A stretch of 20,812 nucleotides of DNA from Deltaproteobacteria bacterium (GCA_031278225.1 JAITKT010000451.1:1-20812), one strand, 5' to 3'. Shown: positions 1,174 to 20,655, numbered from the stretch's first letter. Notes: a model not told the origin generated them from the letters alone. Made by a program: numbers and translations.

Positions 1174-3324
1174 TCATTTCCCCCCTCCCTCTTTCTTCAA
1201 AAGCCTGTGCAGAAAGCCCGCCATGTGCTCCACCGGGAGTTTCCTTCTCCTGCGTTCCTCGACGCCCGAGAGTTCCATGACGCAGCCGGGGCAGTCCGTC
1301 ACGACAACGCTCGCCCCCGCCCTCTCGTAGCCGTCGAGCTTCCTCTCCGTCAGGGTTTTCGAGATCTCCGGAAACTTCAGGGAATAGGTCCCCCCGAAAC
1401 CGCAGCAGAGCTCCTCGTCTTCCGTCCGGACGTAAGAGGCGGCGGCCGCGAGGAGCTCCCTCGGCTCCCTTCCGGCCCCCAGGCCGAGGCGCTGGTGGCA
1501 GGAGCCGTGGAAGGCGGCTTTCTCCGAGTTCGACTCGAAATCTTCCTTGGAATACTTGAGGACGTTGAAAAGAAAGGCGCTGAAGTCGACGATCCTTCGC
1601 GCGAATTTCGCCAAGTCCCCCGAAAGTTCCGGCATGTCCCCGAGAAGCGCGGGATATCTGTTTTTCATGTGGGAGGCGCAGGAGGGACACAGGGAAATGA
1701 TGTGGTCCGTGTCTTCGGCGAGGAAGATCTCAAGATTCTTCAGGGCGATTTTCGCGGCGGTCTTCCTCCCGCCCAGGGTCAGGGCCGGAAGGCCGCAACA
1801 GGCCTGCTCCACCGGAAAGGAGACGGAAACCCCCTTGCGGACGAGGAGCCTCACGCCCGCGACGAGGTCCCCCGGGTACATGAACTCGTGGGCGCAGCCC
1901 GCGAAGATCGAGACCCTCGCGTCGCCCGGACCGTTCAAATCCCGTTCGTCCACCAGTTCCCGGAAGTTTTCGGGCGGGAGGGCCGGAATGGCCCTGAAGT
2001 CCTGTTCTTCGGTCAGGACCGCGGGAACGCTTTTGACGAAGCCCCCGCGAGCGAAAGGTTTCTGAACGAACCTTCCCGCCTTGAGGAGGCCGTGCCAGAG
2101 TTTTCTGTCCGGAAGGACGACGGAGAGGAGGAGAGACCAAAGGGAGGGCCCCTCTTCCCTCGCGAGACGGTCCCTGAGGTCGAAGACGAGTCCGGGGAGA
2201 TCGATCCCCGCGGGGCAAAGGTCCTTGCAGGCCTCGCAGCCGATGCAATTCGCGACGATGTGCCGGGCCTCGTCGGCACCGTGGAAAAAATGGGTGAAAA
2301 GGAGTCCCGCGGCCCCCACGTAGACGTGACCGAGAACGCGCCCTCCCACCAGGCGGTAAACGGGACAGAGGTTGGCGCAGGCCCCGCATCTGACGCAGCG
2401 GAGGACGCTCCGGAAGACCTCGTCCCCCAGGAGCCGCGAGCGGCCGTTGTCGAGAAAGACCACGCGCCTTTCCCGTTTTTTCCCGGAGCGGTCGAAGCCC
2501 GGGTTTCCGGTCAGGAAAGTCGCGTAAGCGGTGATCTTCTGGGCCGTGGCGCTTCGGGGGAGGGCTTTCAGAATCGGGTAAAGGTCCCCGGGCCCGGCCA
2601 GGAGCTTCTCGAGACCCACGACGCTCGCGACGGTCCCCGGAAGGGAGGTCGCGAGTCCGCCGTTTCCCTCGTTCGTGAGGATGCCCAGGGTGCCGGTTTC
2701 CGCCAGCGCGAAATTGGCCCCGGTCACGGCCATGTCGGCCTCCAGAAACTTCCTTCTGAGCTCCCTTCTCGCGAACCTCACGAGCTTTTCTATGTCGGGC
2801 TCGAGCCTCGTCCCCGCGACCCCGGAGAAAGTTTCGGCCACAGCCTCCCTTGAAAGGTGTATCGCGGGAAGCACCATGTGGGTGGGTCTCTCGCCCCTCA
2901 GCTGAACGATCCACTCCCCCAGGTCCGTCTCGCAAACCTCGAGGCCACCCGCGATCAGGGCCTCGTTCAAACCGATCTCCTCGGCGGTCATGGATTTGGT
3001 CTTGATTATCTTCCGGGAGCCCGTCTCTTCCGCGATTTTCAAGATCGTTTCCCGGCATTCCCGCGCGTCCCGCGCGAGACTCACCCCCACCCCCCTCTTC
3101 TCCGCCTCCCTTTTGAAGGTTTCGTAGAGTTCGGGGATGTTTTTCAAGGCCTCGTCCTTGATGGCCGCGATCTCGGCGAAGAGGGCCCGGGTGTCGATCC
3201 CCGCGAACGCCTCTTCCCTCGCGACCTCGTATTGCCTCGCGAACTTGTCGAGGACCGCCCCGAGGTAAGAATCCCCCAGGGCCTCCCTGATTTCTTCGCG
3301 GTACCTTCCCATGGACCTCGCCAT
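1174..3324 (-). CDS. lutB: lactate utilisation iron-sulfur protein, a LutB::LutA fusion (716 aa). The N-terminal part has a LutB/LldF-like DUF162 plus 2x[4Fe-4S] ferredoxin domains. The C-terminal part has two LutA-like CCG cysteine-rich domains.
   Basis: ATG at 3322-3324, with a GGAGG RBS about 8 nt upstream on the minus strand. Ferredoxin motifs CVRCGACANLCP and CIGCEACKDLCP are present. The C-terminal 240 aa carry CCGLPA, CPSC, CCGFGG and CPGC motifs, which are typical of LutA/GlpC-type CCG domains. Confidence 0.8.
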   Translation of the reverse strand: MARSMGRYREEIREALGDSYLGAVLDKFARQYEVAREEAFAGIDTRALFAEIAAIKDEALKNIPELYETFKREAEKRGVGVSLARDARECRETILKIAEETGSRKIIKTKSMTAEEIGLNEALIAGGLEVCETDLGEWIVQLRGERPTHMVLPAIHLSREAVAETFSGVAGTRLEPDIEKLVRFARRELRRKFLEADMAVTGANFALAETGTLGILTNEGNGGLATSLPGTVASVVGLEKLLAGPGDLYPILKALPRSATAQKITAYATFLTGNPGFDRSGKKRERRVVFLDNGRSRLLGDEVFRSVLRCVRCGACANLCPVYRLVGGRVLGHVYVGAAGLLFTHFFHGADEARHIVANCIGCEACKDLCPAGIDLPGLVFDLRDRLAREEGPSLWSLLLSVVLPDRKLWHGLLKAGRFVQKPFARGGFVKSVPAVLTEEQDFRAIPALPPENFRELVDERDLNGPGDARVSIFAGCAHEFMYPGDLVAGVRLLVRKGVSVSFPVEQACCGLPALTLGGRKTAAKIALKNLEIFLAEDTDHIISLCPSCASHMKNRYPALLGDMPELSGDLAKFARRIVDFSAFLFNVLKYSKEDFESNSEKAAFHGSCHQRLGLGAGREPRELLAAAASYVRTEDEELCCGFGGTYSLKFPEISKTLTERKLDGYERAGASVVVTDCPGCVMELSGVEERRRRKLPVEHMAGFLHRLLKKEGGGK

Positions 3325-3366
3325 CCCCCGTCCTCCCCGATTTTTTCCGATCTTCCCCGAGCTTGC

Positions 3367-3957
3367 CTAATCTTCCGTGAGCACCACCAGCAGTTCCAGG
3401 GGTCCGTGGGCCCCCAGGGTCAAAACCCTTTCGATGTCCGAGGTGCGGCTGGGCCCCGTGACCATGACGAGCCGGGAATCCGTTTCCCTCATGATCTCCG
3501 TCATCTTCGGTTCGGCTTCCCCGAAACCCGGGACCAGGGAGGATTTCCCGAGGGCCACCACTTGAATCTCGCACAGGAGCGCGGCGGCCCGGGAATCATC
3601 CGAATCGAAGCGCAAAACCGCCGTGCCGGTCTCGGAAATCCCGAAGAGCGCGACGGAAAAGGCCGCGTCCGGACCTTCCCCGAAGTCCCCCGCGAGATCC
3701 CTCCCGACGAGTATCCCCTCTTTTCCCGCGGTCTCTTCGAATCTTCGGTAAAGTTCGTCGGGAACGTCCGCCAAAAAGAGGGTTTTCGGGGCGTTCGCGG
3801 CCCCCCCGGAATCCGGGGCCTTGGTTTTCTCCCTCGTGACTTTCAGGGCGAGAGCCAGGGCCTCTTCCAAATTTTTCGCCTCGAGGACCCCGGCCCCCAC
3901 CGCCCTCGCGTTTTCGGCGAAGAGTCTCGCGAGGTCGGCGTTCGCCGTTTCGCTCAT
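3367..3957 (-). CDS. lutC: LutC-like lactate utilisation protein C (LUD/DUF162 family, 196 aa)
   Basis: ORF 3367..4191 trimmed to the internal ATG at 3955-3957 (MSETANADLARLFAENARAVGAG...). Its size and its position immediately upstream of the lutB-like gene fit LutC. The upstream 78 codons are a low-complexity G/R-rich run and are unlikely to be coding. Confidence 0.65.
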   Translation of the reverse strand: MSETANADLARLFAENARAVGAGVLEAKNLEEALALALKVTREKTKAPDSGGAANAPKTLFLADVPDELYRRFEETAGKEGILVGRDLAGDFGEGPDAAFSVALFGISETGTAVLRFDSDDSRAAALLCEIQVVALGKSSLVPGFGEAEPKMTEIMRETDSRLVMVTGPSRTSDIERVLTLGAHGPLELLVVLTED

Positions 3958-4457
3958 GTTTGAAATCCTTCGGGCCGGGCGCGGGAGCGCGGGAACCGGC
4001 GTTTCCCCGGCCCCGGCGCCCCTCGAAAATCCAAAATCTTCCCCGTTTTTCCCCCCGCGTTCCCAGGAAAGGGGCCCGGCGTCGCGTGCCCCCGGGTCGC
4101 GGGAAACGATGGGAAAAAAGCCGCGCCGCGCCCGCGAAGCCCGAAAAACCGGCCGGCGCCGAAGGGGAAAAGGAAAGAAGGCGTAAAACAAAGGAAGGAA
4201 AAAGGAAGGTCAAAATAAGGCGTTTTTCGGGACCCGCCGTTCCCGGTCAAAAAAAAGGCCGTTTCGGAACGAGACGGGCCGCGATCGAAAAGCGCTCCTC
4301 ATATCTTGACGTTTAATCGAAAAAAAAGCAATGACGGGGCGGGGAGACGGGACGCCTCCGCGGGGACCCTTCGACCGCGACGCCCCCGAGGGAAAATGCG
4401 CCCCCGTAACGGGGAAGAGCCTCCCTAGGGGGAAGTCCCCCGACCGGGTCCGGGCTT

Positions 4458-4501
4458 CCCTCCGGATCGCTCCCCGGGCCCCCCTCCGGATCGCTCCCCG
4501 G
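4458..4501. repeat. 24-bp tandem direct repeat x2 (CCCTCCGGATCGCTCCCCGG) in the non-coding region
   Basis: Two near-identical copies at 4458-4477 and 4482-4501, read directly. Confidence 0.6.
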
Positions 4502-5223
4502 CGAACCCGCGCCGGGTCGAATCCGACGCGTCAAAACCCGGGTCGACGCCAAATGTGGGCAGGACCAAGGCGGAAGCCACCGGAATTGGCGCGGGAATCC
4601 CCCCCCGAAATGCCAAAGAAACCGAAACATGTTAAAATAAGCCCATGTCCGTCAGAACCCGGTTTCAAAAAACCGAACGGGACCGAACGGGGCCAAACTC
4701 GACATTCCGCGATTCGGACGCCGAACGGGCTTTGTCGTTGAGGCCCGGAACCGGTCCCCGAAGGCGGATGCCCCGGGGAACGCTTCCCCGCCCGGCTCTT
4801 TCGGGGACCCCGGCCGCGCCGGGAGTCTTCGTAACCGCGTTTTACGGTCATTTGATTTTAAAATACGCTAAAATAAGTTATGATAAGCTTAAAATGGCGA
4901 CATCGGACTCTTTCCCGTTTGAATCCGGTCGCGCGACGTCATGAAATCGCGAAAGAGACCCTTCGAATCGCCCGGGACCATGGCCGGAAAACCCGAACCG
5001 GCGCGAAAACGGGGGTCTTTGCCGGCCGAGCGGCCCGTTCGGGACCGTCGGCTTCGAAAATCGGCGGCCGCTTGACGGGGCCGGAGGCGACATGGTAAAA
5101 AAAACTCCCTTGAATCAAGATTTTATTTCATAATTCGATAATTCTCGGAACGTTTTCACGATAAAAACGCCGGAAAATAAAAAAAATGGCGAAATAGTGA
5201 GGAATAAAAAGCAAAAATAGGTA

Positions 5224-5253
5224 TTGACTTTGTAACAAAACAAGTGGTATTCA
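5224..5253 (+). promoter_or_regulatory. sigma70-like promoter: TTGACT(5224-5229)-N18-TATTCA(5248-5253), inside an AT-rich island
   Basis: A strongly AT-rich island at 5100-5260 lies in an otherwise GC-rich context. The -35 and -10 candidates sit about 190 nt upstream of the HU/IHF-like gene. Confidence 0.4.
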
Positions 5254-5444
5254 TACTCTTTAGTAATGAAAGCTTATTCTTGCGTCACTTGCTTCGGCCG
5301 TTTTCGGGCCGACGGCGCCGGACCGCCCCCGAAGCTTCGAGAACGACGATTGAGACCCGGGCGCCGACGTCCCGGCGACGGGTCACCCCGGGTTTCCCGA
5401 TTTTCCCCCGGCGGCCCAAGGCCGTCCGAGAAAAAGATTCAACC

Positions 5445-5744
5445 ATGACCGTCACGAAGGACAGCATCGCGAGACAAATTTCGACCGAGACCGGCCACTC
5501 CGCCCAGGCCTCGTCGGAGCTGGTCGACAAGATACTGGACGTTTTGAAGGAATCCATGGAAAAAGGAAACGACATTCTCATAACCGGTTTCGGGAAGTTC
5601 AAAATAACCGAAAGACCGGGGAGGACGGTGAACAATCCCCTGACCAAACACCAAATGGTGGTGAAAAGCAGAAACGTGGTGACTTTCAGGAGCTCCGCGA
5701 AGTTCAGGAAGGACATCAACAAAGACACCGAAAGCGAATCCTGA
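5445..5744 (+). CDS. HU/IHF-family nucleoid-associated DNA-binding protein (99 aa)
   Basis: ORF 5244..5744 begins with GTG, so it is trimmed to the ATG at 5445 (MTVTKDSIARQISTETGHS...). It carries GFGKF and a RPGRTVNNPLT (arm) motif characteristic of HU/IHF, and a 99-aa length is typical. Local GC content is lower than in neighbouring genes. Confidence 0.8.
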   Translation: MTVTKDSIARQISTETGHSAQASSELVDKILDVLKESMEKGNDILITGFGKFKITERPGRTVNNPLTKHQMVVKSRNVVTFRSSAKFRKDINKDTESES

Positions 5745-5979
5745 GGCCCCGTCCCGCTTCGCCTTTCGGCCCGTTCTCGAAAAACGCCTTCAAACTCTTA
5801 CCGATTCGACTTTAAACATCTTTTCGACGCTTTTTTTTTCGATAATCCGACAAAGTCGGAAAAACCCTTGTCACTTTTCACGTCCGCCCGTCCGAGGATC
5901 GTTTTCGGACATCCGACCAACTTCTTTCCCCCATCGGCTGTGTTATGGGGCCAATCCTATCAGAAAGGTTATCGTTGCC

Positions 5980-6279
5980 ATGACGACCCTGCAACTGACC
6001 CACCTCGCAGAGATCCGGGAACAGCGCCTGATGAGCAGAGCAGAGCTGGCTCGCAAGGCCGAGATTTCCCCTTTGACAATTCTTAAAATCGAAAAAGGCC
6101 AAAGATGCCGCCCGGAGACCGCCAGAAAGATCATTTTGGGACTGGGTCACTCTCCCGAAGACCAGGACAGGCTCTTCCAGGAAATCATCGGCCCCGACGC
6201 TTACGGCCACAACGAGGGAAAAACCGAAAAGGCTTCCCCGGGTGACCAGGATCCCAAGTCCAAACTGAGAAAAAAGTAA
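5980..6279 (+). CDS. XRE-family helix-turn-helix transcriptional regulator (99 aa)
   Basis: MTTLQLTHLAEIREQRLMSRAELARKAEISPLTILKIEKGQRC is a classic HTH_3 (Cro/C1-type) pattern. A GAAAGG sequence sits about 9 nt upstream of the ATG. Confidence 0.75.
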   Translation: MTTLQLTHLAEIREQRLMSRAELARKAEISPLTILKIEKGQRCRPETARKIILGLGHSPEDQDRLFQEIIGPDAYGHNEGKTEKASPGDQDPKSKLRKK

Positions 6280-6518
6280 CCCCGGTTTCGGACGCGCACA
6301 CCGCGAAAAAAAGGTCGACCGCGCCCGAGGCAAACCGTTTTCGCGGGGACGCCGGGGACATACCCTTCGGGAAAATCCCGACGCGCGCGCCACCCGGAAA
6401 ACGAGAGGGTTCCGAAATTTCGGTCGCCTTTTCCGATCGACTTGGTTTAAACGCCTCGGGCGCGCGATTTCCAAAGCCTTGATCTCGCGTTTCGGTTTCC
6501 GTTCGCGACCGAATTGAC

Positions 6519-6554
6519 AAAAAAAGGGGGGGACGGTCCCCCCCTTTTTTTTTC
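6519..6554. terminator. bidirectional intrinsic terminator: A7-GGGGGGGacggtCCCCCCC-T10
   Basis: A 7-bp G/C stem with a 5-nt loop is flanked by an A-run on the left and a T-run on the right. It lies between the XRE gene on the plus strand and the convergent DUF1638-like gene on the minus strand. Confidence 0.8.
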
Positions 6555-6623
6555 TTGTTTTTCTTGTTTTGCCCTTTTCGCCCGCAGGCGTCCGGAAGAA
6601 TCGTTCCGGGAGCGGGCCGGCCG

Positions 6624-7334
6624 TCACCCGCCTCCGCCGTGTCCGCCCTCTCCGCCGTCCCCGGGCCAATAAAAAATTTTATTCCAAAGGGTCAGGTCCA
6701 AACGGCTTCCGGGCGGCAAAATCAAGAAGCGCCCGGGGTCGTGGGGGCCCGTCAGAAAATCCCTGAGCCAGGCGCGGTCGACTTCCAGGGTCTCGACCGT
6801 GAGCCCCAGGTCGATCGCCATGGGCGAAACCATTCTCGCGACTTTTTCCGGGTCGAAGCTCTTCGTGTCCAAGACTCCCAGCCTGGAATAACCGTCGAGC
6901 ATCTTGTGGTTCAGAAAGGAGGCCGTCTCGCGGTCGAACATGCTCGCGGCTTTCCGGTAGGACGCGAGAAGGCCGCACTCGTGGCGGAGCCACCCCTCGG
7001 TGAGAAAATAGGTGACGGGTTTGGAGGCGTTCATTCTCGCTTCGAAGGAACCCAAAAGGAAGGTGAGGCAGTCGTCGGCGAGGGGCAAAATCGTCTCGTA
7101 GTTTCCCGTCGAAAGCCCGGACAAGCCTCCCCCGCAGTAGCCCAGGGCCACGAGAAGCCTGTCGCAGTTTCCCTCCGCCTCGCCGAAGAGCTCCCGCGCC
7201 CGCGCCCGCAGACGTTCGGTGCTGTTGTGGAGACCTCCGTCGAGCCACAGGACCCTGTGGTTCAGTCCCAATTCGGAGCATGCCCGCTCGATCTCGTCCC
7301 GAATGGTCTCGCAGGCCACGAGGATCGTTTCCAT
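6624..7334 (-). CDS. hypothetical protein, DUF1638-like (236 aa)
   Basis: ORF 6624..7751 trimmed to the ATG at 7332-7334 (METILVACETIRDEIERA...), which has a GGAGG RBS 7 nt upstream. The upstream 139 codons are low-complexity. The DUF1638 assignment is from memory of the family; it features a GYCGGG motif, and confidence in the family is low. Confidence 0.55.
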   Translation of the reverse strand: METILVACETIRDEIERACSELGLNHRVLWLDGGLHNSTERLRARARELFGEAEGNCDRLLVALGYCGGGLSGLSTGNYETILPLADDCLTFLLGSFEARMNASKPVTYFLTEGWLRHECGLLASYRKAASMFDRETASFLNHKMLDGYSRLGVLDTKSFDPEKVARMVSPMAIDLGLTVETLEVDRAWLRDFLTGPHDPGRFLILPPGSRLDLTLWNKIFYWPGDGGEGGHGGGG

Positions 7335-7495: not shown

Positions 7496-7640
7496 GAATT
7501 GTACACCAAATTCGGGCGGACATCTTCCGCGAGAGCCCGTTTCCGGCGCCCGGGGAAGCGTTCCGGGCTATACGACTCCCGGCCGCGTTTCCCGAAGCCG
7601 ACGCGGGATGAAGGGGAAAACCCCGCCGGCGGGAAGGCCC

Positions 7641-7660
7641 GGCGATTGGACACAATCGCC
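7641..7660. promoter_or_regulatory. perfect 8-bp-arm inverted repeat GGCGATTG-gaca-CAATCGCC
   Basis: Read directly. It lies about 75-95 bp upstream of the -35 element of the 7733 promoter and is a candidate regulator-binding site. Confidence 0.35.
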
Positions 7661-7732
7661 GCGCGTCCGCGAACATCGCCAAACATAACCTCTTATGTGT
7701 TAAAATGGCATGATTTGTGTTATCGTGCGGAC

Positions 7733-7761
7733 TGGACAGAAGGCGGGTCAAAACTTATAAT
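7733..7761 (+). promoter_or_regulatory. near-consensus sigma70 promoter TGGACA(7733-7738)-N17-TATAAT(7756-7761)
   Basis: Read directly within AT-rich island 7680-7770. It is oriented toward the SPFH gene, whose start lies 285 nt downstream. Confidence 0.55.
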
Positions 7762-7846
7762 TGTTTGGATTCCGCTTTTCTTCGCGCTTTCCCGGGCTTT
7801 CCGCCCGCTCTTTCCCGCGATGTTTCCCCGACCCTTCCGGGCCCGC

Positions 7847-7890
7847 CCGGCCCGAAACCGGCCCGAGACCGGCCCGAGACCGGCCCGAGA
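7847..7890. repeat. 11-bp tandem repeat x4 (CCGGCCCGARA) in the leader of the SPFH gene
   Basis: Units at 7847, 7858, 7869 and 7880, read directly. Confidence 0.6.
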
Positions 7891-8045
7891 ATCGTACGGA
7901 CCTTCCCGCCCCGGGACGGCCTCCCCGCCCGCGAAGAGCCGCCGTAAACGAATTCGCGCCGACGAAAGGCAATACCCGTTTTATTTTCGCCCTGTCCGCG
8001 TCCGGTCCGTCCGGGAACGCCAAATCCTACTCAGCGGTGGTGTCC

Positions 8046-9335
8046 ATGTCAATTCTTCAACTTGTCAAATACGACGGTCCGAACAACGTGTTCGCCTGGA
8101 AATGGCCCAATCAATCTCTTATCACGGGTTCCCAACTCGTGGTCAACGAGTCTCAGGAAGCCGTCTTTTTCAGCGGCGGAAGGGCTTTGGACATCTTCGG
8201 TCCCGGCCGGCACTCCCTGAGCACCAAAAACCTTCCCCTGCTCACCTCCATCGTCAAAATACCCTTCGGGCCCGAATCCCCTTTCACGGCCGAGGTCTGG
8301 TTCGTGAACAAGGTCCACTCCCTGGACGTCAAGTGGGGCACCCCCACGCCAATCCAGGTCCAGGACCCCAAGTTCGGGGTGATGTTGCCCGTGCGCTCCT
8401 TCGGGCAGTTCGGGGTCCAGGTGGAGAACTCGGCCAAGTTTCTGTTCAAGCTGGTCGGCACCACCTCCCGCTTCGACCAGGACTCCATGGGCAGGGTCTT
8501 CAAGGGCCTCTTTCTGACCAAGGCCAAGGACACCCTCGCCCAGTACGTCATCAACAAGAAGATAAGCGTTCTCGAGATAAGCGCTTACCTCGAGGAGCTG
8601 TCGGCCTCCCTGCAGGAGAAGATAACGCCGACCTTCTCCGATTACGGCATAAGGCTTCTGAACTTCTTCGTGAACGACGTCTCGGTCCCGGAAAACGACC
8701 CCGCGGTCGTCCAGCTGAAGAGCGCCCTCGCCAAAAAAGCCGAGATGAACATCCTGGGTTACGACTACACCCAGAAACGCTCCTTCGACGTCATGGAGGG
8801 GGCGGCCAAAAACCCCGGGGCCCCCGGAACCGTCATGGGAACGGGAATAGGCCTCGGCATGGGGATGGGGGTCGGACCTCAGATGAACGAAGCCATGGGA
8901 GGCATTTCGACGAGACTCGACCCGAGATCCTCCTCCGTCTGTCCCAACTGCAACGCGGCGGTCCCGGCGGGCAAAAAGTTCTGCCCCGACTGCGGGACCC
9001 CCCTGGCGGGCGAACCCCAAAAGGCGGCGCCGGTCATCACCTGCGACAAATGCGGGTCCCCCATCTCCCAGGGCGCCAAATTCTGTCCCAACTGCGGGGA
9101 TCCCTACAATCCCTGCCCCAAATGCGGAACGGACCTTCCCAGGGAAGCGACCGTCTGCACCAAGTGCGGTTACGCGCTCCCCAATCCCTGTCCTTTCTGC
9201 GGAACGCCCCTGGAGCGCCCCGGCCTCAAATTCTGCCCCTCCTGCGGAAAGCAACTCACCAAGAAATGCCCCGACTGTCAGACGGACAACGACCCGAAAG
9301 CCAAATTCTGCCTGAATTGCGGCACCAAACTGTGA
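8046..9335 (+). CDS. SPFH/Band-7 (stomatin/prohibitin/flotillin-like, COG4260/YdjI-like) protein with five tandem C-terminal zinc ribbons (429 aa)
   Basis: ORF 7761..9335 trimmed to the ATG at 8046 (MSILQLVKYDGPNNVFAWKWPNQSLITGSQLVVNESQEAVFF...GPGRHSLSTKNLPLL). This N-terminal pattern matches the Band_7_1/COG4260 family as far as I recall. The C-terminal 140 aa carry 10 CxxC motifs, which make 5 zinc ribbons of the form CPxCG...KFCxxCG. Confidence 0.75.
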   Translation: MSILQLVKYDGPNNVFAWKWPNQSLITGSQLVVNESQEAVFFSGGRALDIFGPGRHSLSTKNLPLLTSIVKIPFGPESPFTAEVWFVNKVHSLDVKWGTPTPIQVQDPKFGVMLPVRSFGQFGVQVENSAKFLFKLVGTTSRFDQDSMGRVFKGLFLTKAKDTLAQYVINKKISVLEISAYLEELSASLQEKITPTFSDYGIRLLNFFVNDVSVPENDPAVVQLKSALAKKAEMNILGYDYTQKRSFDVMEGAAKNPGAPGTVMGTGIGLGMGMGVGPQMNEAMGGISTRLDPRSSSVCPNCNAAVPAGKKFCPDCGTPLAGEPQKAAPVITCDKCGSPISQGAKFCPNCGDPYNPCPKCGTDLPREATVCTKCGYALPNPCPFCGTPLERPGLKFCPSCGKQLTKKCPDCQTDNDPKAKFCLNCGTKL

Positions 9336-9351
9336 AAAGGAACGTCGAAAC

Positions 9352-10119
9352 ATGTCAAATCCACTCTCTCAATCAAGATTCAGGAAAATAGTCCTCGTCT
9401 GGGGAGCCGCGATCGTCGTCTGTTCCATTTTGTTCGCCCTCGCCTCTTCCGGGGGAGGCCCGAGCTGGCTGGGCTTTTTCTTTCTCCTTTTGGTGATCAC
9501 CGTGACGGCGGCGGCCTTCGTCTTCAGGCTTCTGTACTCGAAGGACGAGGCCCTGGGCATCTTCAACATCGGGTTTTCCACCCTGACCCTTCTCTATTTC
9601 ATCTTCGGCTCCATAGTGGCCCTGTTTTTCATAGTGGGCAATTTTCAGTCCGTTCGCTTTCTGGTGGCCCCGGAGCTAATCCTTCTCGTCGTGTATTTCG
9701 TGGCCTGCCTCGTGATATTCCTCACCGCGAGGGAACACGACTCCCGGGGCGAAGAGATTTCCAGAAGGGTTTCCCTCGTGGCCGGAATGGAGGCGCGCTG
9801 CAGAAACCTTCACGCGAGGCTCGCCCTCTCCAATCCCGAGGCGGCGGCAATGCTGGAAAAAATTTCGGAAGAAATCAAATACTTCGACAAAAATTCGGAA
9901 GTGAGGGTGGACAAGATCATCACCGACAAACTCATAAGCATCGATGACATGACGAACCCCCAACCGCGGCTCGCGACGACCCCCGCCGGGCCCGGGGAAC
10001 CCCTCCCCGCCGCCGAGCCGCCGAGTCAACGGACGATCGTCGATTCCCTGAAGGAACTCCACCAACTGGTCTTGTCCAGAAAGGACGAGAGCCTGAGGGC
10101 AAAGACGGGTGGTTTTTAA
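9352..10119 (+). CDS. hypothetical integral membrane protein (4 predicted TM helices plus a ~130-aa soluble helical C-terminal domain, 255 aa)
   Basis: The ATG is 17 nt after the SPFH stop, with AAAGGAA upstream. There are four hydrophobic stretches of 20-23 aa. No recognisable catalytic motifs. Confidence 0.6.
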   Translation: MSNPLSQSRFRKIVLVWGAAIVVCSILFALASSGGGPSWLGFFFLLLVITVTAAAFVFRLLYSKDEALGIFNIGFSTLTLLYFIFGSIVALFFIVGNFQSVRFLVAPELILLVVYFVACLVIFLTAREHDSRGEEISRRVSLVAGMEARCRNLHARLALSNPEAAAMLEKISEEIKYFDKNSEVRVDKIITDKLISIDDMTNPQPRLATTPAGPGEPLPAAEPPSQRTIVDSLKELHQLVLSRKDESLRAKTGGF

Positions 10120-10248
10120 GTCGATCCGATCCTCGCCTTCGGATTTCCGCCATCGATCGAACGACGAAAACGGGACCGCGCCGTTCGAAATGAAAATTTT
10201 TTCGCGTTTTTCGGACACCGCCAGCTTTTCCCCGAAAAGGACACGCTC

Positions 10249-11490
10249 ATGGAAGGGCCCGCCCGGTTGATTTGCAAAAATTGCGGGGGAGACATAGACG
10301 TCATCCCGGGAGTCACGAAATACAGATGTCCGTATTGCGACTCCGAGAATTTCGTCTTCGATTCCCAGTCCCCGGGCCCGCAGCCGACCGCGATAGCGCA
10401 CGTCATCTGCGCCAAAACCGACGAAAAACGACTCCATTCCCTCCTCTTGTCAAAGATGATAGAGGACCAAATGGCCCCGGACGACATCCTCACCGCGAGC
10501 GTCATCCAGGAAGAAACGGTGATGTACGTTCCCTGTTTCGTGACCAGGGGAACCTTCGACATCAACTGGACGGCCTCCTTCGGCTACGATCGCCGGGAGG
10601 CCTACGTGGCTTACGTCACCGTCGCGGAAGGCGGCCAAAGGAGAACGAGACCCGTGACCCAATACAGAACGGTCACGGATTGGAAACCGGCGAGCGGAAA
10701 CGCCGCCGGAAATTACGCGGCCCTCGGCTACGCCGGCTCCAATCTCTCCAAGGAAGCCGCGGCCTTGGTCGAGGGTCTCCCGACGTCATACCTAATCCCC
10801 TACACCCCGGCCTACGTCGAGGGCTTCACCGTGGAGCCTTTTTACAAGAAACCGGAAGAAGTGGAAGGCTCTTTCGACGACTCCATTCAAAAGCAGGAAT
10901 ACGCCGCGGTGGCGCGCCACTTTCAGGGCGATCGGCAGAGAGACGTCCATTTCAACTCCAAAAGAAAACCGGACTTCGTGCAGCCGGGTCTCCTTCCCGC
11001 GGCCCACGCGGTCTTCGCCTACAAAGACAAACAATACAACCTCTGGGCCGACGGCATCGACCTCTCCAGGGTGATTACCGACTATTTTCCCCGGGACAAA
11101 ACCAGGGGTTCCAAAATCGCGAGAGGCTTGTGGCCCGTTATCGTCGCCTTCGTCGCCCTTGCCGCCACCCTGTTTTTCACCGGGGATTTCACCCCCCTCG
11201 CCCTGGCGGGCCCAATCTTGGGCTTAATCTACTACTACGCCAGAAAGCACTCCATCATCGGCTACTCGAAAAGAATAAGGGAAGCGACGCTCGCCGCGAA
11301 AAAATTGGAGGACAACGACCAGGTGGGTCATCTCACGAACGAGGAAACGCTCGCCTTGAGACAAAAAGCGACGGAAATCGGGGTGAGCCTTCCACTCCTC
11401 GCCAAAACCGATCTGGACCCGTTGGTCATCCCCTTTCTCACCATCGTCTTCGGCGCTTCGACTTACGTCCTGACTTTGTTCTTCCACTGA
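10249..11490 (+). CDS. hypothetical protein with an N-terminal zinc ribbon (CKNC...CPYC), a ~280-aa central domain and three C-terminal TM helices (413 aa)
   Basis: MEGPARLICKNCGGDIDVIPGVTKYRCPYCDSENFVF. Hydrophobic segments are GLWPVIVAFVALAATLFF, LALAGPILGLIYYYA and LVIPFLTIVFGASTYVLTLFF. It lies on the same strand and in the same cluster as the SPFH gene. Confidence 0.6.
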   Translation: MEGPARLICKNCGGDIDVIPGVTKYRCPYCDSENFVFDSQSPGPQPTAIAHVICAKTDEKRLHSLLLSKMIEDQMAPDDILTASVIQEETVMYVPCFVTRGTFDINWTASFGYDRREAYVAYVTVAEGGQRRTRPVTQYRTVTDWKPASGNAAGNYAALGYAGSNLSKEAAALVEGLPTSYLIPYTPAYVEGFTVEPFYKKPEEVEGSFDDSIQKQEYAAVARHFQGDRQRDVHFNSKRKPDFVQPGLLPAAHAVFAYKDKQYNLWADGIDLSRVITDYFPRDKTRGSKIARGLWPVIVAFVALAATLFFTGDFTPLALAGPILGLIYYYARKHSIIGYSKRIREATLAAKKLEDNDQVGHLTNEETLALRQKATEIGVSLPLLAKTDLDPLVIPFLTIVFGASTYVLTLFFH

Positions 11491-11912
11491 ATTTTTCGGG
11501 GGAATTTTTCCCGGTTTCCGCGATGTTTTTTCCCTCGTTTTCCCCGGCCTTCCCGGATAATCGTTTTCCGGGGGTTTGTCCGTCTCGCCCCTCAAAGCGG
11601 ATCGGGTTCCCGCGAAAAATCCGAACCCCCCGGACCCCGGCCGAGGGCTTCGGGCCGAAATCATCCCCCGCCCGCCCCGATCTTCTCCCGAAAAAACCCC
11701 GAAATCCCCCTAATTTCCCCCAAAAACCCCTTTTTCGCCCCCGAAACCCCCCCTTTTTTTTTTCGTCCGCGGCTCTCCCGGCTTCCGGTCTTCGCTTCCT
11801 ACGCCCCGCGCGGCATCCCCTTTTCCCCTGACCCCGGAGCTTCGGGGGAACGCCTTTGTTTTGTCCTACGGGCCCGAGGACTTGTTTTGTCGGTTTCGCC
11901 GCGTCGCGACGA

Positions 11913-11938
11913 CATCAATTGACGCGCGAATCATTTGA
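11913..11938 (+). promoter_or_regulatory. degenerate copy of the operator-like direct-repeat pair (ATCAATTGAC-N6-ATCATTTGAC)
   Basis: Related to the pairs at 12094 and 12319. It is preceded by the same CTTGTTTTGTCGG...CGCCGCG motif. Confidence 0.35.
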
Positions 11939-12093
11939 CCGGCGCCGAATGAAGACCGACCCGGGAAACCACCGACCCCTCCGGCGACGGGTTCTCCGCG
12001 GATCCGAAAACCGAACGCGCCCGGGGACCGGCCGCCATATTCGTCCGAAGGGCGAAAGGCCTTGTTTTTTTGTCGGCGCCGCGCTAAAATGAT

Positions 12094-12119
12094 ATTAATT
12101 GACACGAGAATTAATTGAC
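12094..12119 (+). promoter_or_regulatory. operator-like direct repeat ATTAATTGAC-N6-ATTAATTGAC (copy 1). Each half contains the palindrome AATTAATT.
   Basis: Read directly. It lies about 75 bp upstream of the truncated tetR 5' copy. Confidence 0.45.
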
Positions 12120-12191
12120 CCGCCGCGAAAAAACACCGTTCTTCAAAATCCGAAACAACCCAACAACGCGATCTTCCGCGGTGGTGAAAGA

Positions 12192-12329
12192 TGAATTCGA
12201 TGCCGCAAAGGCGCCGCGTCGGTCGACCCCAGACCCCGCCCCCCGACGGTCCCAAGATCAAAGACATCATCCCGGAAAAATCCATAGAGGTTTTTTTGTC
12301 GGCGCCGCGCCGGAATGATATTAATTGAC
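12192..12329 (+). pseudogene. truncated duplicate of the tetR 5' end (45 codons, no HTH). Its RBS is degraded from GGAGG to GGTGG.
   Basis: MNSMPQRRRVGRPQTPPPDGPKIKDIIPEKSIE... is identical at 30 of the first 33 residues to the TetR N-terminus at 12417. It then diverges and stops inside the second operator copy. Confidence 0.5.
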
Positions 12330-12344
12330 ACGAGAATTAATTGA
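12319..12344 (+). promoter_or_regulatory. operator-like direct repeat ATTAATTGAC-N6-ATTAATTGAT (copy 2), proximal to the intact tetR
   Basis: Read directly. It lies 73 bp upstream of the tetR ATG at 12417. Confidence 0.45.
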
Positions 12345-12416
12345 TCCGCCGCGAAAAAACACCGTTCTTCAACATCGGAAACAACCAAACAACGCGATCT
12401 TCCGCGGAGGTGAAAG

Positions 12417-13346
12417 ATGAATTCGATGCCGCAAAGGCGCCACGTCGGTCGACCCCCGACCCCGCCCCCCGACGGTCCCAAGATCAAAGACATCATCCTG
12501 GAAAAATCCATCGAGGTCTTGAGCGAACAGGGAATCACCAATTTTTCCCTCAAAGACATCTCGACCCGCGCCGGAGTCACGCCGGCCGCCATCTATTACT
12601 ATTTTCACAACAAGAAGGAACTCGTTCTCCAAACACTGGAATTCTATCTGGTGCCCCTCGTGAAAAGTTACTGGGACATCATGAAAAACGAGGAAGACCC
12701 GGTGAAGATGGTCACCTCCCTTCAGGAGAGAATGTTCGAGATAGCGACCGAATACCCGTGGTTTCTGGCCCTCTGGACCCGCGAGCTCGCCAGCGACTCG
12801 CACCCCATGAGGAAATTCCTCAAGGAAAGGATGAGCGAATATTCCTTCTTGTCCTTCTCCGAAAAGATAAAGAAGGGTCAGGACGATAAGCTCATCCACC
12901 CGGACATCATCCCGGAGATGCTCTTCATCTCGATTTTCTCCTCGCTCTACATAAATCTCCTCTCCAGACACAACTGGGAGATGATCTACAACATCGAGAT
13001 ACCCGTCCCCAATCTCCTGAAGCACATCAAGGCCCTGACCGTGCGGGGCATAATTCACAACCCGGAAGAAGAGGGCCGGAAGGCCCGCGAGGCCGCGGCC
13101 GAAACCGTCGCGAAAGCGGCCGCCGAAACCGCCCCGGCGAGCGACCCGGCCGTGGAAACTCCCGTCGCTCCCGACGTTCGCGCCGATCTCGCGGTTCCCG
13201 CCGAACCCGTCACTCCCGCGGATCCCGAAAACCCTTGGAATCCCGACGATCCCGGGGCGCGGCGCGATCTCGAAACCCCGAACAATCCCGAAACCCGAAA
13301 CCCCGAGGAAGCGCATGCCCAAACCGACGGAAACCCCGCCGACTGA
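12417..13346 (+). CDS. TetR/AcrR-family transcriptional regulator with a ~90-aa low-complexity Pro/Ala/Glu-rich C-terminal tail (309 aa)
   Basis: A GGAGGTG RBS sits 5 nt upstream. The HTH reads EQGITNFSLKDISTRAGVTPAAIYYYFHNKKEL, which is a TetR_N signature. The tail from about residue 215 is disordered-looking, and the last 32 nt overlap the emrA-like start. Confidence 0.8.
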   Translation: MNSMPQRRHVGRPPTPPPDGPKIKDIILEKSIEVLSEQGITNFSLKDISTRAGVTPAAIYYYFHNKKELVLQTLEFYLVPLVKSYWDIMKNEEDPVKMVTSLQERMFEIATEYPWFLALWTRELASDSHPMRKFLKERMSEYSFLSFSEKIKKGQDDKLIHPDIIPEMLFISIFSSLYINLLSRHNWEMIYNIEIPVPNLLKHIKALTVRGIIHNPEEEGRKAREAAAETVAKAAAETAPASDPAVETPVAPDVRADLAVPAEPVTPADPENPWNPDDPGARRDLETPNNPETRNPEEAHAQTDGNPAD

Positions 13347-16266: not shown

Positions 16267-17040
16267 TCAATACACGTGAACGCTTTGGGCCGCGGTGGGA
16301 AGATAATTGACCCCCAGCCAGGTCATCATGAGAAAAAGAAAAGCGACCGGGAGCACCCACAGGGTCAGGGCGTTTTTAAGGCCAATCCGTCTCAGGTGGA
16401 TGTAGAGCAGGAAGGCGGCAGCGGTGACGAAGGCCCAGGTCTCTTTCGGGTCCCAGGACCAATAGTGGCCCCAGGCCGCCTTGGCCCAGAGGGCGCCCAG
16501 GATGAGTCCCAGCATCAGGGCCCCGACACCCACGTGGACGAGATTGTCGACGAGGTCCAAGAGTTTCGGATCCTCCGCGCCTTTCCTTCGTTTCACCATG
16601 ATGACGACGCTTCCGACCGCCGACGCCGCGAGGAGGGCGTAGGAGAGGATGTAGAGCGTCACGTGGGGTATGAAGTAAGGGCTCATCAGAGCCGGCATCA
16701 GGGTTTTGGAGTGGATCTCGGGCTTCAGGAGATTCACCGCCGCGAAGACGATGGCCAACGCGGCCCCGAAGGCGAGGAGCCAGGGGTAACCCCAGCGCCT
16801 GTGGGCGAGTATGCCCAGGACGGAAAGAAAGAGGGAATACCAGAGTCTGGTCTCCCCCATGGTCCGGAAGGGGGGTCTTTTCAGGCCGATCCAAAGCCCG
16901 ATTATGAAAACGAGGCTGACCGCCGCGCCGATGGCAATCGCGAGAACGGCCTTGTCGTTCTTTTTCAAAACGAACCACAGGCCCAGGAGCCAGAAAAGAA
17001 TCGCGAGGGGCCCGAAAAATTCGAAGTGAGTCCAGCGCAT
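16267..17040 (-). CDS. ccsA: cytochrome c-type biogenesis protein CcsA/ResC (System II haem handling, 257 aa)
   Basis: WWD tryptophan-rich motif AAWGHYWSWDPKETWAF, and 8 predicted TM segments. The start is chosen at the ATG at 17038-17040, which follows the resB stop in a TGA-A-ATG arrangement and has a GGGGG about 12 nt upstream. An alternative ATG at 17067 cannot be excluded. Confidence 0.75.
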   Translation of the reverse strand: MRWTHFEFFGPLAILFWLLGLWFVLKKNDKAVLAIAIGAAVSLVFIIGLWIGLKRPPFRTMGETRLWYSLFLSVLGILAHRRWGYPWLLAFGAALAIVFAAVNLLKPEIHSKTLMPALMSPYFIPHVTLYILSYALLAASAVGSVVIMVKRRKGAEDPKLLDLVDNLVHVGVGALMLGLILGALWAKAAWGHYWSWDPKETWAFVTAAAFLLYIHLRRIGLKNALTLWVLPVAFLFLMMTWLGVNYLPTAAQSVHVY

Positions 17041-17041
17041 T

Positions 17042-18358
17042 TCAGTCCGCCCCCTTGTCCTTGGCAATGTCGACGGCCTTGCCGGAGACGTCGTTCGCGG
17101 CCTTGTTCGCGGCTCCGGTGTTCGCGCCCTTGTCGGCGCCCATGACGACGAGCCCGAACGCGCCCAGGGCCATGAGAACGAATCCGGCGTAGGCGACGAA
17201 GAGCCAGGGGTCTCTCACGAGAAGGAAGCTGCTCCACGCGGAAAGGTTTCCGGCCTGGTTGTCGTAGCCGTGTTGGTAGACCATCCAATCACCCGCCCGG
17301 AGGGGCTTGTTCACGAGAATCTCGCCTTCCTTTTCGATCCCCTCCTCGGTGAAAACTTTCACGAGAGAGGCGAAACGTTTGGGCTCGGGTCTTGACATGA
17401 CGAGCAGTCTCTCGTCGTCCAGGGTCAGGGGTTGGGGCATGACGAATCTGTTTCCCCCGGCCACCCAGCCTTCCGAGTCGATTCCCGTCAAAGAGCTTTT
17501 CACGCGGAGTTTGGCGGCCTGGGTGGAGGCCTTCATGACGGCCCTCGCGAAGACGCCGTCCCCCACGGGAACCGCCTTTCCCAGGAATTCCAGGACCTCG
17601 ATTTCCAGGTCCAGGATTCCCCTCTGGCCCCCGGGGTCGTCCAAAAAGAACAGGGCCGGTCTTCCCTCCGGAAGCGCGGTTCCGGTGTTCTTTTTGATGA
17701 CGGCCAAGTGGGCGGGCCATTCATCCATGGAAAAATCGTCGAGCCTCACCGCGACGGGAAGTTGAAGCACCTCCCCCGGCTTCGGGCCTTCGACCCTCCA
17801 TTCGACCTCGCCCTCCAAAACCCTCATGACGTGCTGTTCCCGATCGGGGGCCCCGATGCCCGCCGCGAGAAGAACCAGGAAGAGCCCCAGATGGTTCGCG
17901 AGAAAGATCTTCCTCTTTTTGAATTTGGGGACGGTCCTCATGACGGTCGCGGAAAGCGACAGGAGCATGGCGAGATACAAAAACACGAAGGGCCAGGAAG
18001 TCGTGAGATTGAAGAGACCAAGGCCCCGAAGGAAACCCTCCCCCCCGGACCCGGGGATTCTTTGAGGCACGAATCCCATGACGAGGGAAAGAAGCAAAAT
18101 AAAGAGCATCAAGGACAGGGAAAAGGCCCCTCCGGAAAAGAACCCGAAAAACCGGGTCTTTCCCAAGGGAATCGCGGCCAACCCGAAGAAAATCACGAAG
18201 ATTCCGACGTAATGACTCGCGGGGGCGGCGAAAGCCGAAAGGTCGAGGGGCCCGACAACCAAAGAGGTGACGATTCCCCCGCAAAAAACGGCCCCCGCCG
18301 TCAAAAGACCCAGGGACAAGCGATTCAACCGTTTGTTTTTGAGACCGACGTCAGCCAA
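17042..18358 (-). CDS. resB: cytochrome c biogenesis protein ResB/CcsB (438 aa)
   Basis: Basic N-terminus, TM helices, a large periplasmic domain and a C-terminal TM, which is ResB architecture. It sits immediately upstream of ccsA. The apparent TTG start at 18356-18358 has a GGAAAGG about 9 nt upstream, and the exact start is uncertain. Confidence 0.65.
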   Translation of the reverse strand: MADVGLKNKRLNRLSLGLLTAGAVFCGGIVTSLVVGPLDLSAFAAPASHYVGIFVIFFGLAAIPLGKTRFFGFFSGGAFSLSLMLFILLLSLVMGFVPQRIPGSGGEGFLRGLGLFNLTTSWPFVFLYLAMLLSLSATVMRTVPKFKKRKIFLANHLGLFLVLLAAGIGAPDREQHVMRVLEGEVEWRVEGPKPGEVLQLPVAVRLDDFSMDEWPAHLAVIKKNTGTALPEGRPALFFLDDPGGQRGILDLEIEVLEFLGKAVPVGDGVFARAVMKASTQAAKLRVKSSLTGIDSEGWVAGGNRFVMPQPLTLDDERLLVMSRPEPKRFASLVKVFTEEGIEKEGEILVNKPLRAGDWMVYQHGYDNQAGNLSAWSSFLLVRDPWLFVAYAGFVLMALGAFGLVVMGADKGANTGAANKAANDVSGKAVDIAKDKGAD

Positions 18359-18402
18359 GGGACTCGCCTTTCCGAAGATGAAAACCGCGTTTGGGGGAAA
18401 AG

Positions 18403-18445
18403 CCCCGAACGGCCCGAAAAAAGGGGATTTTCGGACCGTTCGGGG
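18403..18445 (-). promoter_or_regulatory. large near-perfect hairpin between nrfA and resB: CCCCGAACGG-c-CCGAAAA-aagggga-TTTTCGG-a-CCGTTCGGGG, a ~17-bp stem
   Basis: Read directly. There is one mismatch in the stem and a 7-nt loop. On the minus-strand transcript it is followed by CUUUUCC, so it could be a partial terminator or an mRNA-stability element. Confidence 0.5.
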
Positions 18446-18485
18446 GGATTGTGGAGGGGTGAGTCAAGGAGTCGCCGGGTCGGCG

Positions 18486-19976: not shown

Positions 19977-19989
19977 TTACCCCCTGGAT

Positions 19990-20562
19990 TTAAAGCATGT
20001 TCCGGAGCCATTGAGGAGCCGGCGATTCGGGAAAAGGATTCGGAAGGTTGTCGGTCGTGCCCAGGCCGCTTACGCCGCCGTGGGCGAGATCCCTGTGGCA
20101 GTCCCAACAGGTCTTGTCCTTTCCCGCCAAAGCGTCGTTCATGTTGACGTTCATGCGGGTGAACTCGGTGACCAGCTGTTCGTGGCAGCGGATGCAATTT
20201 TCCATGATGACCCTGTTCGAGCCAGCCCTCGGGCGAATCACCTGAGGTTCCGCGCTCAACGTGTAGACGGCCGCGTGATAAAGCCCGTCGGTGGCCTTGA
20301 AATACCATTTTCTGGCGAAACCGTCCTGAGGCACGTGGCAATCGTTGCAGGTGGCCCGGGCGTAATGGGAGCTGCCCTTCCACGACTGGTAGTAAGTGCC
20401 CATTATGTGGCAGTTCAGGCAGGTTTCGGGAAGATCGTTCGCGTAGGAAAAGGCCCGGGAAACGTAGAGGAGATAAACGGTCACGCCCGCCAAAAGTCCG
20501 AAAACCAGGCAGAACGCCCATCTCCACTTATATACCCCGTACATTTGTTTTAATTTTCCCAT
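19990..20562 (-). CDS. nrfH: NrfH, the NapC/NirT-family tetrahaem quinol dehydrogenase subunit of the nitrite reductase (190 aa)
   Basis: Four CxxCH motifs (CLNCH, CNDCH, CIRCH, CWDCH) and a single N-terminal TM. ORF 19990..20610 is trimmed to the ATG at 20560-20562 (MGKLKQMYGVYKWRW...), with GGTGAG 5 nt upstream. It ends 13 nt upstream of the nrfA start. Confidence 0.8.
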   Translation of the reverse strand: MGKLKQMYGVYKWRWAFCLVFGLLAGVTVYLLYVSRAFSYANDLPETCLNCHIMGTYYQSWKGSSHYARATCNDCHVPQDGFARKWYFKATDGLYHAAVYTLSAEPQVIRPRAGSNRVIMENCIRCHEQLVTEFTRMNVNMNDALAGKDKTCWDCHRDLAHGGVSGLGTTDNLPNPFPESPAPQWLRNML

Positions 20563-20655
20563 AAGCTCACCGCCCGGCGTTGTGATTGAGGAGGAGGAGA
20601 AGGAAGACAAAACGGGCTGTTCGATGGTCCGAGAGTAGCAAAACCGAAAAACAAA

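Follow-up and report, generated by a model that had tools for sequence, protein, structure and literature searches.

Three co-oriented genes in a contig from a Deltaproteobacteria bacterium (positions 7733-11490, promoter included) encode an SPFH protein (G1), a protein with four transmembrane (TM) helices (G2) and a zinc-ribbon membrane protein (G3), and they raise the question whether these genes form one system and to which known membrane system it belongs. The window analysed here is the complete contig of 20,812 bp, metagenome-assembled and carrying locus tags LBF41_, and all positions refer to it. An original prediction, made from the DNA alone, had described an uncharacterised membrane module. 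Sequence comparison now indicates that the operon is evolutionarily related to YdjGHI/SamGHI of Bacillus subtilis, as a distant and PspA-less relative.

The three genes were found to be a real operon, as judged from their co-orientation, short gaps, ribosome-binding sites and a single strong promoter. The gaps amount to 16 nt between G1 and G2 and 129 nt between G2 and G3, and AAGGA sites are located 8-9 nt ahead of the ATG codons of G2 and G3. Coding frames of the window were picked by the GC content at third codon positions (GC3), followed by a Pfam scan of the plausible genes. The three open reading frames (ORFs) showed a GC3 of 0.74-0.79, the signature of coding frames, with the G1 frame measured on the longer ORF 7761-9335. 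The sigma-70-type promoter TGGACA-N17-TATAAT (7733-7761, plus strand) matches the consensus at 11 of 12 positions. A scan of 7500-12500 gave 2 promoter-like sites against 0.9 expected, so that the count alone is weak evidence. In a relative with a G3 of ~48% identity (locus L005), TGGACA-N17-TATACT is found ~260 nt upstream of the SPFH gene. This similar distance, with leaders that are otherwise unrelated, speaks for a real promoter followed by a long leader in the window. The C-rich 5' leader of ~285 nt (~7762-8045, plus strand) contains an 11-nt repeat, CCGGCCCGAGA, in four copies at 7847-7890 (Tandem Repeats Finder). The promoter, the repeat-containing leader and the three co-oriented genes were thus confirmed as first described. 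A riboswitch or attenuator in the leader was considered and ruled out. Neither the leader nor any other part of the window matched Rfam 15 at the gathering score, folding showed no excess stability over shuffled sequence (z = +0.49), and the leader sequence was not conserved in L005, which leaves a long leader in which nothing points to an RNA element.

In order to see whether the three genes belong together in other genomes, a profile-guided scan with G3 was employed, using one genome per species. It yielded 79 loci, 68 of them assessable. Six-frame translations of the loci were queried with G1, G3 and an iterated hidden Markov model (HMM) of G2. Genes for SPFH protein, G2 and G3 in shared order and strand were found at about 51 of the 68 assessable species-level loci. 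The strict arrangement on one strand was observed 48 times; at 4 loci the trio was masked by ORF over-extension (L011, L028, L032) or wider-spaced (L014). Six loci showed the SPFH gene directly followed by G3 with G2 undetected, about 10 a G3 homologue alone, and one (Alkalibaculum, L083) G3 followed by the SPFH gene. Median intergenic gaps across the loci were 25 and 55 nt. The hosts comprise termite-gut Deltaproteobacteria metagenome-assembled genomes (MAGs), Burkholderiales (Oxalobacter, Paraburkholderia, Pandoraea, Massilia, Ralstonia, Variovorax, Sutterella), Acidobacteria, Chlorobi, Nitrospiraceae, Roseococcus, Opitutae, Pirellulaceae, Flavobacteriaceae, Spirochaetia and Clostridia, as well as bins labelled Micrarchaeota, Methanobacteriota and Nitrosopumilus. 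Among these, loci with the full trio are spread over Deltaproteobacteria, Burkholderiales, Acidobacteria, Chlorobi, Alphaproteobacteria and Micrarchaeota bins. The predicted co-localisation of G2 and G3 homologues with SPFH genes therefore extends to ~50 species of several phyla.

All-against-all clustering of the locus ORFs identified these three as the only conserved families, plus antisense shadow ORFs, and no fourth or flanking gene conserved with the trio. The setting of the cassette is chromosomal and non-mobile, with housekeeping genes as flanks which differ by lineage, such as seryl-tRNA synthetase, glutamate dehydrogenase and MgsA in Oxalobacter; tblastn against plasmid and phage collections gave no G3 match. 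Flanking DUF1638 and TetR-EmrAB genes were shared by the closest relatives alone. The efflux and respiratory neighbours, whose adjacency had been said to fit an envelope function, are likewise conserved in the closest relatives and not across the family; the all-against-all clustering ruled out a conserved link to them, and this adjacency is uninformative on function. The middle partner varies, with the 4-TM G2 here, a TPM protein in Bacillus and none in some Burkholderiales, while the pair of SPFH and SamG-like protein is the constant core of the cassette. At two loci (L069, 5174-5976, a MAG labelled Methanobacteriota archaeon; L081, 2520-3303, a Flavobacteriaceae MAG) the SPFH gene is followed by genes for a small 3-4-TM protein (106-116 aa), a 150-aa TPR-like protein and a G3 homologue. 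The visible sequence similarity of the inserted proteins of the two loci points to horizontal transfer, or else to an "archaeal" contig that was mis-binned.

G1 (8046-9335, plus strand) encodes a soluble SamI/YdjI-like SPFH protein of 429 aa. Its SPFH domain (residues 21-219, 8106-8702) matched Band_7_1 (PF13421) with an E-value of 1.5e-51 and 175.4 bits at a cut-off of 24, against only 6.6e-07 for Band_7 (PF01145). BLASTP with genuine B. subtilis YdjI gave an E-value of 5e-22 and 22% identity across SPFH domain, linker and ribbon. The assignment of the first gene as a YdjI-like SPFH protein hence stood the profile check; what had been missed was an array of five zinc ribbons with ten CxxC motifs at the C-terminus (residues 293-429, 8922-9332; Pfam DZR, Zn_Ribbon_1, Zn_ribbon_3). 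It is preceded by a Gly/Met/Pro-rich low-complexity linker (residues ~250-292, 8793-8921), which aligns to the Met/Gly/Asn-rich linker of YdjI. Hydropathy analysis detected no TM helix or other hydrophobic segment. With its solubility, low-complexity linker and C-terminal zinc ribbons, G1 has the features described for SamI. A search of PDB sequences with G1 returned only zinc-ribbon or low-complexity noise. Partner SPFH ORFs in the related loci fall into two classes, with exactly ten CxxC motifs in 25, none in 31 and a few intermediates, these counts including a few ORFs truncated by contig ends. The occurrence of partner proteins with either five ribbons or none marks the array as accessory. 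The two classes are not strictly tied to taxonomy: among Burkholderiales, five ribbons were seen in L031 (a MAG labelled Oxalobacter formigenes), L026, L036 and L047, and none in most others.

G3 (10249-11490, plus strand; 74 close homologues in the protein collection) encodes a SamG/YdjG-like membrane protein of 413 aa, and its AlphaFold2 model reached a predicted local distance difference test (pLDDT) score of 93.4. The N-terminal zinc ribbon (10273-10338), with the invariant or nearly invariant cysteines C9, C12, C27 and C30 and four short strands in the model, is the sole part recognised by Pfam. It is followed by a predicted cytoplasmic alpha+beta domain (residues ~50-285, 10396-11103), a beta-rich unit of ~240 aa that ends at about residue 285 and carries the motifs WTASFGYDRxE, RTVTDWxP and QGDRQRD. 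Hydropathy, model helices at 295-311 and from 316 onward, and Lys/Arg residues at both cytoplasmic ends indicate a TM hairpin (residues ~290-335, 11116-11253). A predicted cytoplasmic helical stretch (11254-11418; model helix 316-359, starting inside TM2, and helix 364-378) leads to the third TM helix (residues 391-412, 11419-11484; hydropathy and model), and the C-terminus is predicted to be periplasmic. By the positive-inside rule, the ribbon with the alpha+beta domain, the stretch between TM2 and TM3, and also the C-terminal half of G2 would be cytoplasmic, and we infer that only the C-terminus of G3 reaches the periplasm.

Using a profile of 22 G3 sequences that covered ribbon and domain, hhalign matched B. 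subtilis YdjG with a probability of 99.5% (E 1.9e-22, 259 columns). Since the alignment spans YdjG residues 51-314, the match is not confined to the ribbon. The same profile matched a YdjG-like protein with a TPM gene next downstream at 98.5%. On this profile evidence G3 is a distant YdjG/SamG homologue, and it displays the N-terminal ribbon, YpeB-related NTF2-like domain and TM segment by which the YdjG/SamG-type partner is described. A PDB sequence search with the G3 profile produced only zinc-ribbon or low-complexity noise. The G3 clade comprises ~450 clusters of 50% identity at E<=1e-30, and 2,923 at E<=1e-10 including the wider superfamily. Longer homologues extend past TM3 into TPR, Sel1, TonB_C, SH3_3 or LprI domains; the G3 of the window is the minimal form, with no periplasmic domain. 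In several Deltaproteobacteria MAGs, tandem G3 paralogues lie beside the main G3 homologue (L007, 4263-5492; L021, 4659-5954; L027, 4583-5803), of which the one in L007 looks degenerate, with cysteines and motifs lost.

G2 (9352-10119, plus strand) encodes a protein of 255 aa with four hydrophobic helices in residues ~13-125 (9388-9726) and a polar, helical C-terminal domain (9727-10116) that is predicted to be cytoplasmic, as judged by hydropathy. From the positive charges, both termini would be cytoplasmic. No Pfam or PADLOC family was found for G2, and NCBIfam matches were far under the curated cut-offs; 23 family members were likewise free of Pfam domains, TPM included. A single-sequence search retrieved only 5 homologues, all on contigs shared with G3 homologues, while the iterated HMM placed G2 between SPFH gene and G3 in ~50 loci. 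The family profile matched YdjH with an hhalign probability of 0.6%, i.e. the two are unrelated. G2 is thus a non-homologous substitute in the slot of the TPM protein YdjH/SamH. It had been announced as an extra, different partner, and it is different without being extra. That G2 and G3 would be of unknown type was borne out in that Pfam, PADLOC and NCBIfam hold no curated family for either; the suggested DUF4178, DUF4247 and other families matched neither of the two.

For the comparison with B. subtilis, the genuine pspA-ydjGHI locus was recovered from metagenome contigs via the published ydjG primer sequence. There, YdjG has 341 aa with a TM helix at its end, YdjH is a TPM_phosphatase protein (PF04536), and YdjI combines Band_7_1 with one ribbon. 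YdjG and YdjH are required for the membrane location of the soluble YdjI, which recruits PspA, as found by microscopy and two-hybrid analysis, the latter also suggesting that YdjI and PspA are anchored mainly by YdjH (PMC8581546). When SamI is lost, SamG-SamH signalling goes out of balance, a phenotype for which PspA is not needed (bioRxiv 10.64898/2026.02.06.704340). Both systems share a soluble Band_7_1 SPFH protein with low-complexity linker and C-terminal zinc ribbon (G1, YdjI), a protein with zinc ribbon(s), YpeB/NTF2-like alpha+beta domain and TM anchor (G3, YdjG), another integral membrane protein whose gene lies between these two or next to them, and the organisation of the three genes in a single operon. 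Clear differences were visible as well. The middle protein has four TM helices and a helical cytoplasmic domain here and is a TPM-domain protein in B. subtilis; G2 has no Pfam domain that would make it a TPM_phosphatase-type partner. The gene order is I-x-G here and G-H-I in B. subtilis. G3 has one ribbon and three TM helices, compared to two ribbons and one TM helix in YdjG, which also lacks the invariant G3 motifs, and G1 has five ribbons compared to one in YdjI. SamGHI is a system of Firmicutes, whereas the hosts found here are for the most part Gram-negative bacteria, joined by MAGs from bins assigned to archaea.

Linked pspA, present in B. subtilis, is missing here. Pfam scans of the plausible genes and phmmer with B. 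subtilis PspA (E<=10) detected none in the window, in agreement with the original prediction, and the same query found nothing at E<=10 in the ORFs of 83 loci with ~6 kb around each. The anchored zinc-ribbon protein had been listed as a difference from Bacillus as well, and this point fell, since YdjG itself ends in a TM anchor. The view that the partners look different held for G2, unrelated to YdjH, and failed for G3 with its 99.5% match to YdjG. A pair from the clostridium Alkalibaculum sporogenes (L083, 2708-5369) is intermediate in form and a helpful evolutionary link between the two systems. Its G3-like protein has the family motifs WSASIGHEREETY, RTVTDWSP and APGDR, two ribbons and a TM region, and is directly followed by a Band_7_1 protein with three WKCECG-type ribbons. 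The order is of the Bacillus type (G then I), and no middle membrane protein was seen on the 6-kb contig.

Other SPFH and membrane-stress systems are less similar. Flotillin, HflK/C and stomatin-NfeD share the SPFH domain and an expected oligomeric, membrane-associated scaffolding; they are, however, self-anchored by a TM helix or hairpin and work with FtsH, NfeD or YqiJ/YuaF-type partners, whereas G1 is anchorless and of the Band_7_1 type. No NfeD, FtsH or YqiJ-type partner was found in the window, and none is conserved in the related loci. The classical Psp (PspA/B/C/F) and Lia systems resemble the cassette in having membrane-integral sensors and a postulated function on the cytoplasmic side of a membrane under stress, but there is no homology between the components, and neither PspA, PspB, PspC, LiaF nor a Toastrack domain was found in the window. 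Literature searches on Band_7_1 and COG4260 gave no account of this cassette. The suggestion of an undescribed envelope or membrane-stress candidate is correct insofar as a YdjI-type module is present and undescribed in this form; it went too far in regarding both partners as different and the neighbours as relevant.

Drawing on the predicted topology and on the B. subtilis experiments as an analogy, we regard the cassette, albeit with considerable reserve, as probably a sub-membrane SPFH scaffold acting in membrane or envelope homeostasis or signalling, the role proposed for SamGHI, with G2 and G3 docking G1. G2 and G3 would form an inner-membrane platform with the large domains toward the cytoplasm, to which the soluble G1 would be recruited by both. 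The SPFH domain of G1 may then oligomerise into a scaffold under the membrane, and the periplasmic C-terminal modules of longer G3 homologues could provide the envelope link. The likely output would be membrane stabilisation, organisation or stress signalling, with or without the participation of a PspA/IM30 protein whose gene lies elsewhere. In favour of this scaffold are, besides the operon structure, the conserved gene order and the chromosomal, non-mobile setting, the positive residues flanking the cytoplasmic ends of the TM helices and the envelope-type domains after TM3 in homologues; the presence of such envelope-binding modules (TonB_C, SH3, TPR, Sel1, LprI) suggests that in this family the condition of the envelope is linked to a cytoplasmic scaffold.

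We are aware of several points which weigh against this interpretation. Each mechanistic step would be transferred from B. subtilis, where the SPFH protein is 22% identical and YdjG similar at the profile level only. As G2 is not homologous to YdjH and YdjH seems to be the main anchor in B. subtilis, the interaction logic may differ here. The invariant polar motifs of G3 (D114, R115, E117, T141-W145, Q226-D232) are absent from YdjG, and these G3-specific invariants hint at a family-specific activity or ligand beyond the scaffold model. The five-ribbon array is missing in about half of the partner SPFH proteins. About 10 G3 homologues stand alone beside unrelated genes (Rho, aldo-keto reductase, a beta-lactamase-family protein, MORN-repeat proteins), which for this reason give no functional signal. 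Finally, the absence of pspA is based on ~6 kb per locus and one single-sequence phmmer query.

Taking up the invariant residues, the polar cluster of G3 (D114, R115, E117, T141, T143, D144, W145, Q226, G227, D228, Q230, D232) might be a catalytic, small-molecule or lipid-binding site, and the cassette a PspA-independent trans-envelope signalling or enzymatic system, which we regard as rather unlikely. In this model, periplasmic TonB_C, SH3, TPR or Sel1 modules would monitor the cell wall or outer membrane, with the cytoplasmic domain of G3 in control of how the SPFH scaffold is assembled. The main rival of the preferred reading is a platform for assembly or quality control in place of a stress sensor, likewise rather unlikely. 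Here an SPFH cage or microdomain would chaperone or gate an unlinked client complex or protease, like HflK/C with FtsH, and G3 would serve as tether to wall or outer-membrane partners. SPFH proteins in general build ring-like oligomers round clients, and Ravi et al. read band-7 and TPM partners as chaperone-like assembly factors. The TonB_C, SH3_3, TPR, Sel1 and LprI domains of G3 homologues are typical for periplasmic protein or peptidoglycan binding, and PepSY, VirB8 and NTF2-like folds are frequent protein-interaction modules of membrane machines. However, no client, protease or NfeD-type partner is conserved beside the cassette, the TM anchor present in HflK/C, stomatin and flotillin is missing from G1, and the G3 of the window has no periplasmic domain at all.

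An anti-phage or abortive-infection function, with SPFH protein and membrane partners sensing or inflicting membrane damage during infection, appears highly improbable. It could account for the patchy spread over distant phyla and for tandem and orphan G3 paralogues, and phage infection is one of the stresses to which the sigma-W regulon, with the related PspA-YdjGHI operon as a member, responds. Against these stand housekeeping genes instead of defence islands as neighbours, the stable synteny in the termite-gut Deltaproteobacteria lineage, the missing G3 matches on plasmids or phages, the lack of a PADLOC-DB v2 match for G1, G2 and G3 at E<=1, and the lack of any nuclease, nucleoside triphosphatase or other effector-type domain. 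Nucleic-acid binding by the zinc ribbons, i.e. a membrane-tethered transcription or translation regulator which is released or activated on a signal, seems scarcely credible. The TF_Zn_Ribbon domain of YdjG is of a DNA-binding type (PMC9239133) and SamI loss changes transcription globally in B. subtilis, but half of the partner SPFH proteins are ribbonless, no helix-turn-helix or other DNA-binding domain was found, and single four-cysteine ribbons very often serve protein-protein contacts. A weak resemblance of the G1 ribbons to small zinc-ribbon RNA-binding proteins of archaeal ribosomes (E 0.07-0.65) was not significant. Chance adjacency of three functionally unrelated genes is practically excluded by their common order and strand at three quarters of the assessable loci, in several phyla, with short gaps and despite varied flanks.

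The cassette separates a conserved SamGHI core from the Bacillus-specific PspA link. Band_7_1 SPFH proteins are widespread, and the sole experimentally studied case that we found is that of B. subtilis, tied to PspA. The pair of SPFH and SamG-like protein is, as the cassette shows, a far older and broader unit, present in many Gram-negative lineages and some archaea-assigned bins with no linked pspA. The middle membrane partner was exchanged more than once: a TPM protein in Firmicutes, the 4-TM protein here, and the small TM plus TPR-like proteins of L081 and L069. The analysis defines G2 and the G3 clade as two protein families that lack a curated entry. Oxalobacter, Paraburkholderia, Pandoraea, Ralstonia and Massilia offer cultivable hosts for genetics.

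Upstream of the trio, the window encodes an S-adenosylmethionine methyltransferase, LutB-like and LutC-like LUD proteins, HU and, on the minus strand, a DUF1638 protein; downstream follow TetR, an HlyD/EmrA-like protein and a major facilitator superfamily pump, and then, on the minus strand, CcsA, ResB, NrfA and NrfH. Next to the operon, the gap between G3 and tetR is ~900 bp here and 137 bp in the relative L001. It contains part of a 226-bp tandem duplication of 94% identity (12064-12517) of the tetR promoter/operator region with the first ~30 tetR codons, which could be real or an assembly artefact. The duplicated operator region has two ATTAATTGAC half-sites, and the upstream copy carries TAG in place of the TCG of the real gene; still further upstream, at ~11880-11945, the operator-like motif recurs in a third and degenerate copy. 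The TetR ORF (12417-13346) has 309 aa, compared to 219 aa in L001, and the extra C-terminus includes a 9-nt repeat (13160-13227, 7.6 copies) and overlaps the start of the HlyD-like gene.

On the minus strand at 1174-4191, a 716-aa LutB-like fusion (LUD, 4Fe-4S dicluster and two CCG domains) lies beside the LutC-like LUD gene, a cluster of the lactate-utilisation type in which no LutA-like gene was visible. It is followed by ~1 kb without a convincing gene (4200-5240), with a 24-nt repeat at 4450-4501. The HU ORF (5244-5744) has ~65 extra N-terminal codons, so that the true start is probably later, and a minus-strand ORF of 263 aa (5878-6669) showed no Pfam match and an ambiguous GC3. At the other end of the window, nrfH-nrfA, encoding cytochrome c nitrite reductase, have genes of the resB/ccsA type for system II cytochrome c biogenesis immediately downstream (16267-20610, minus strand), and this arrangement suggests a dedicated haem-attachment pair for NrfA.

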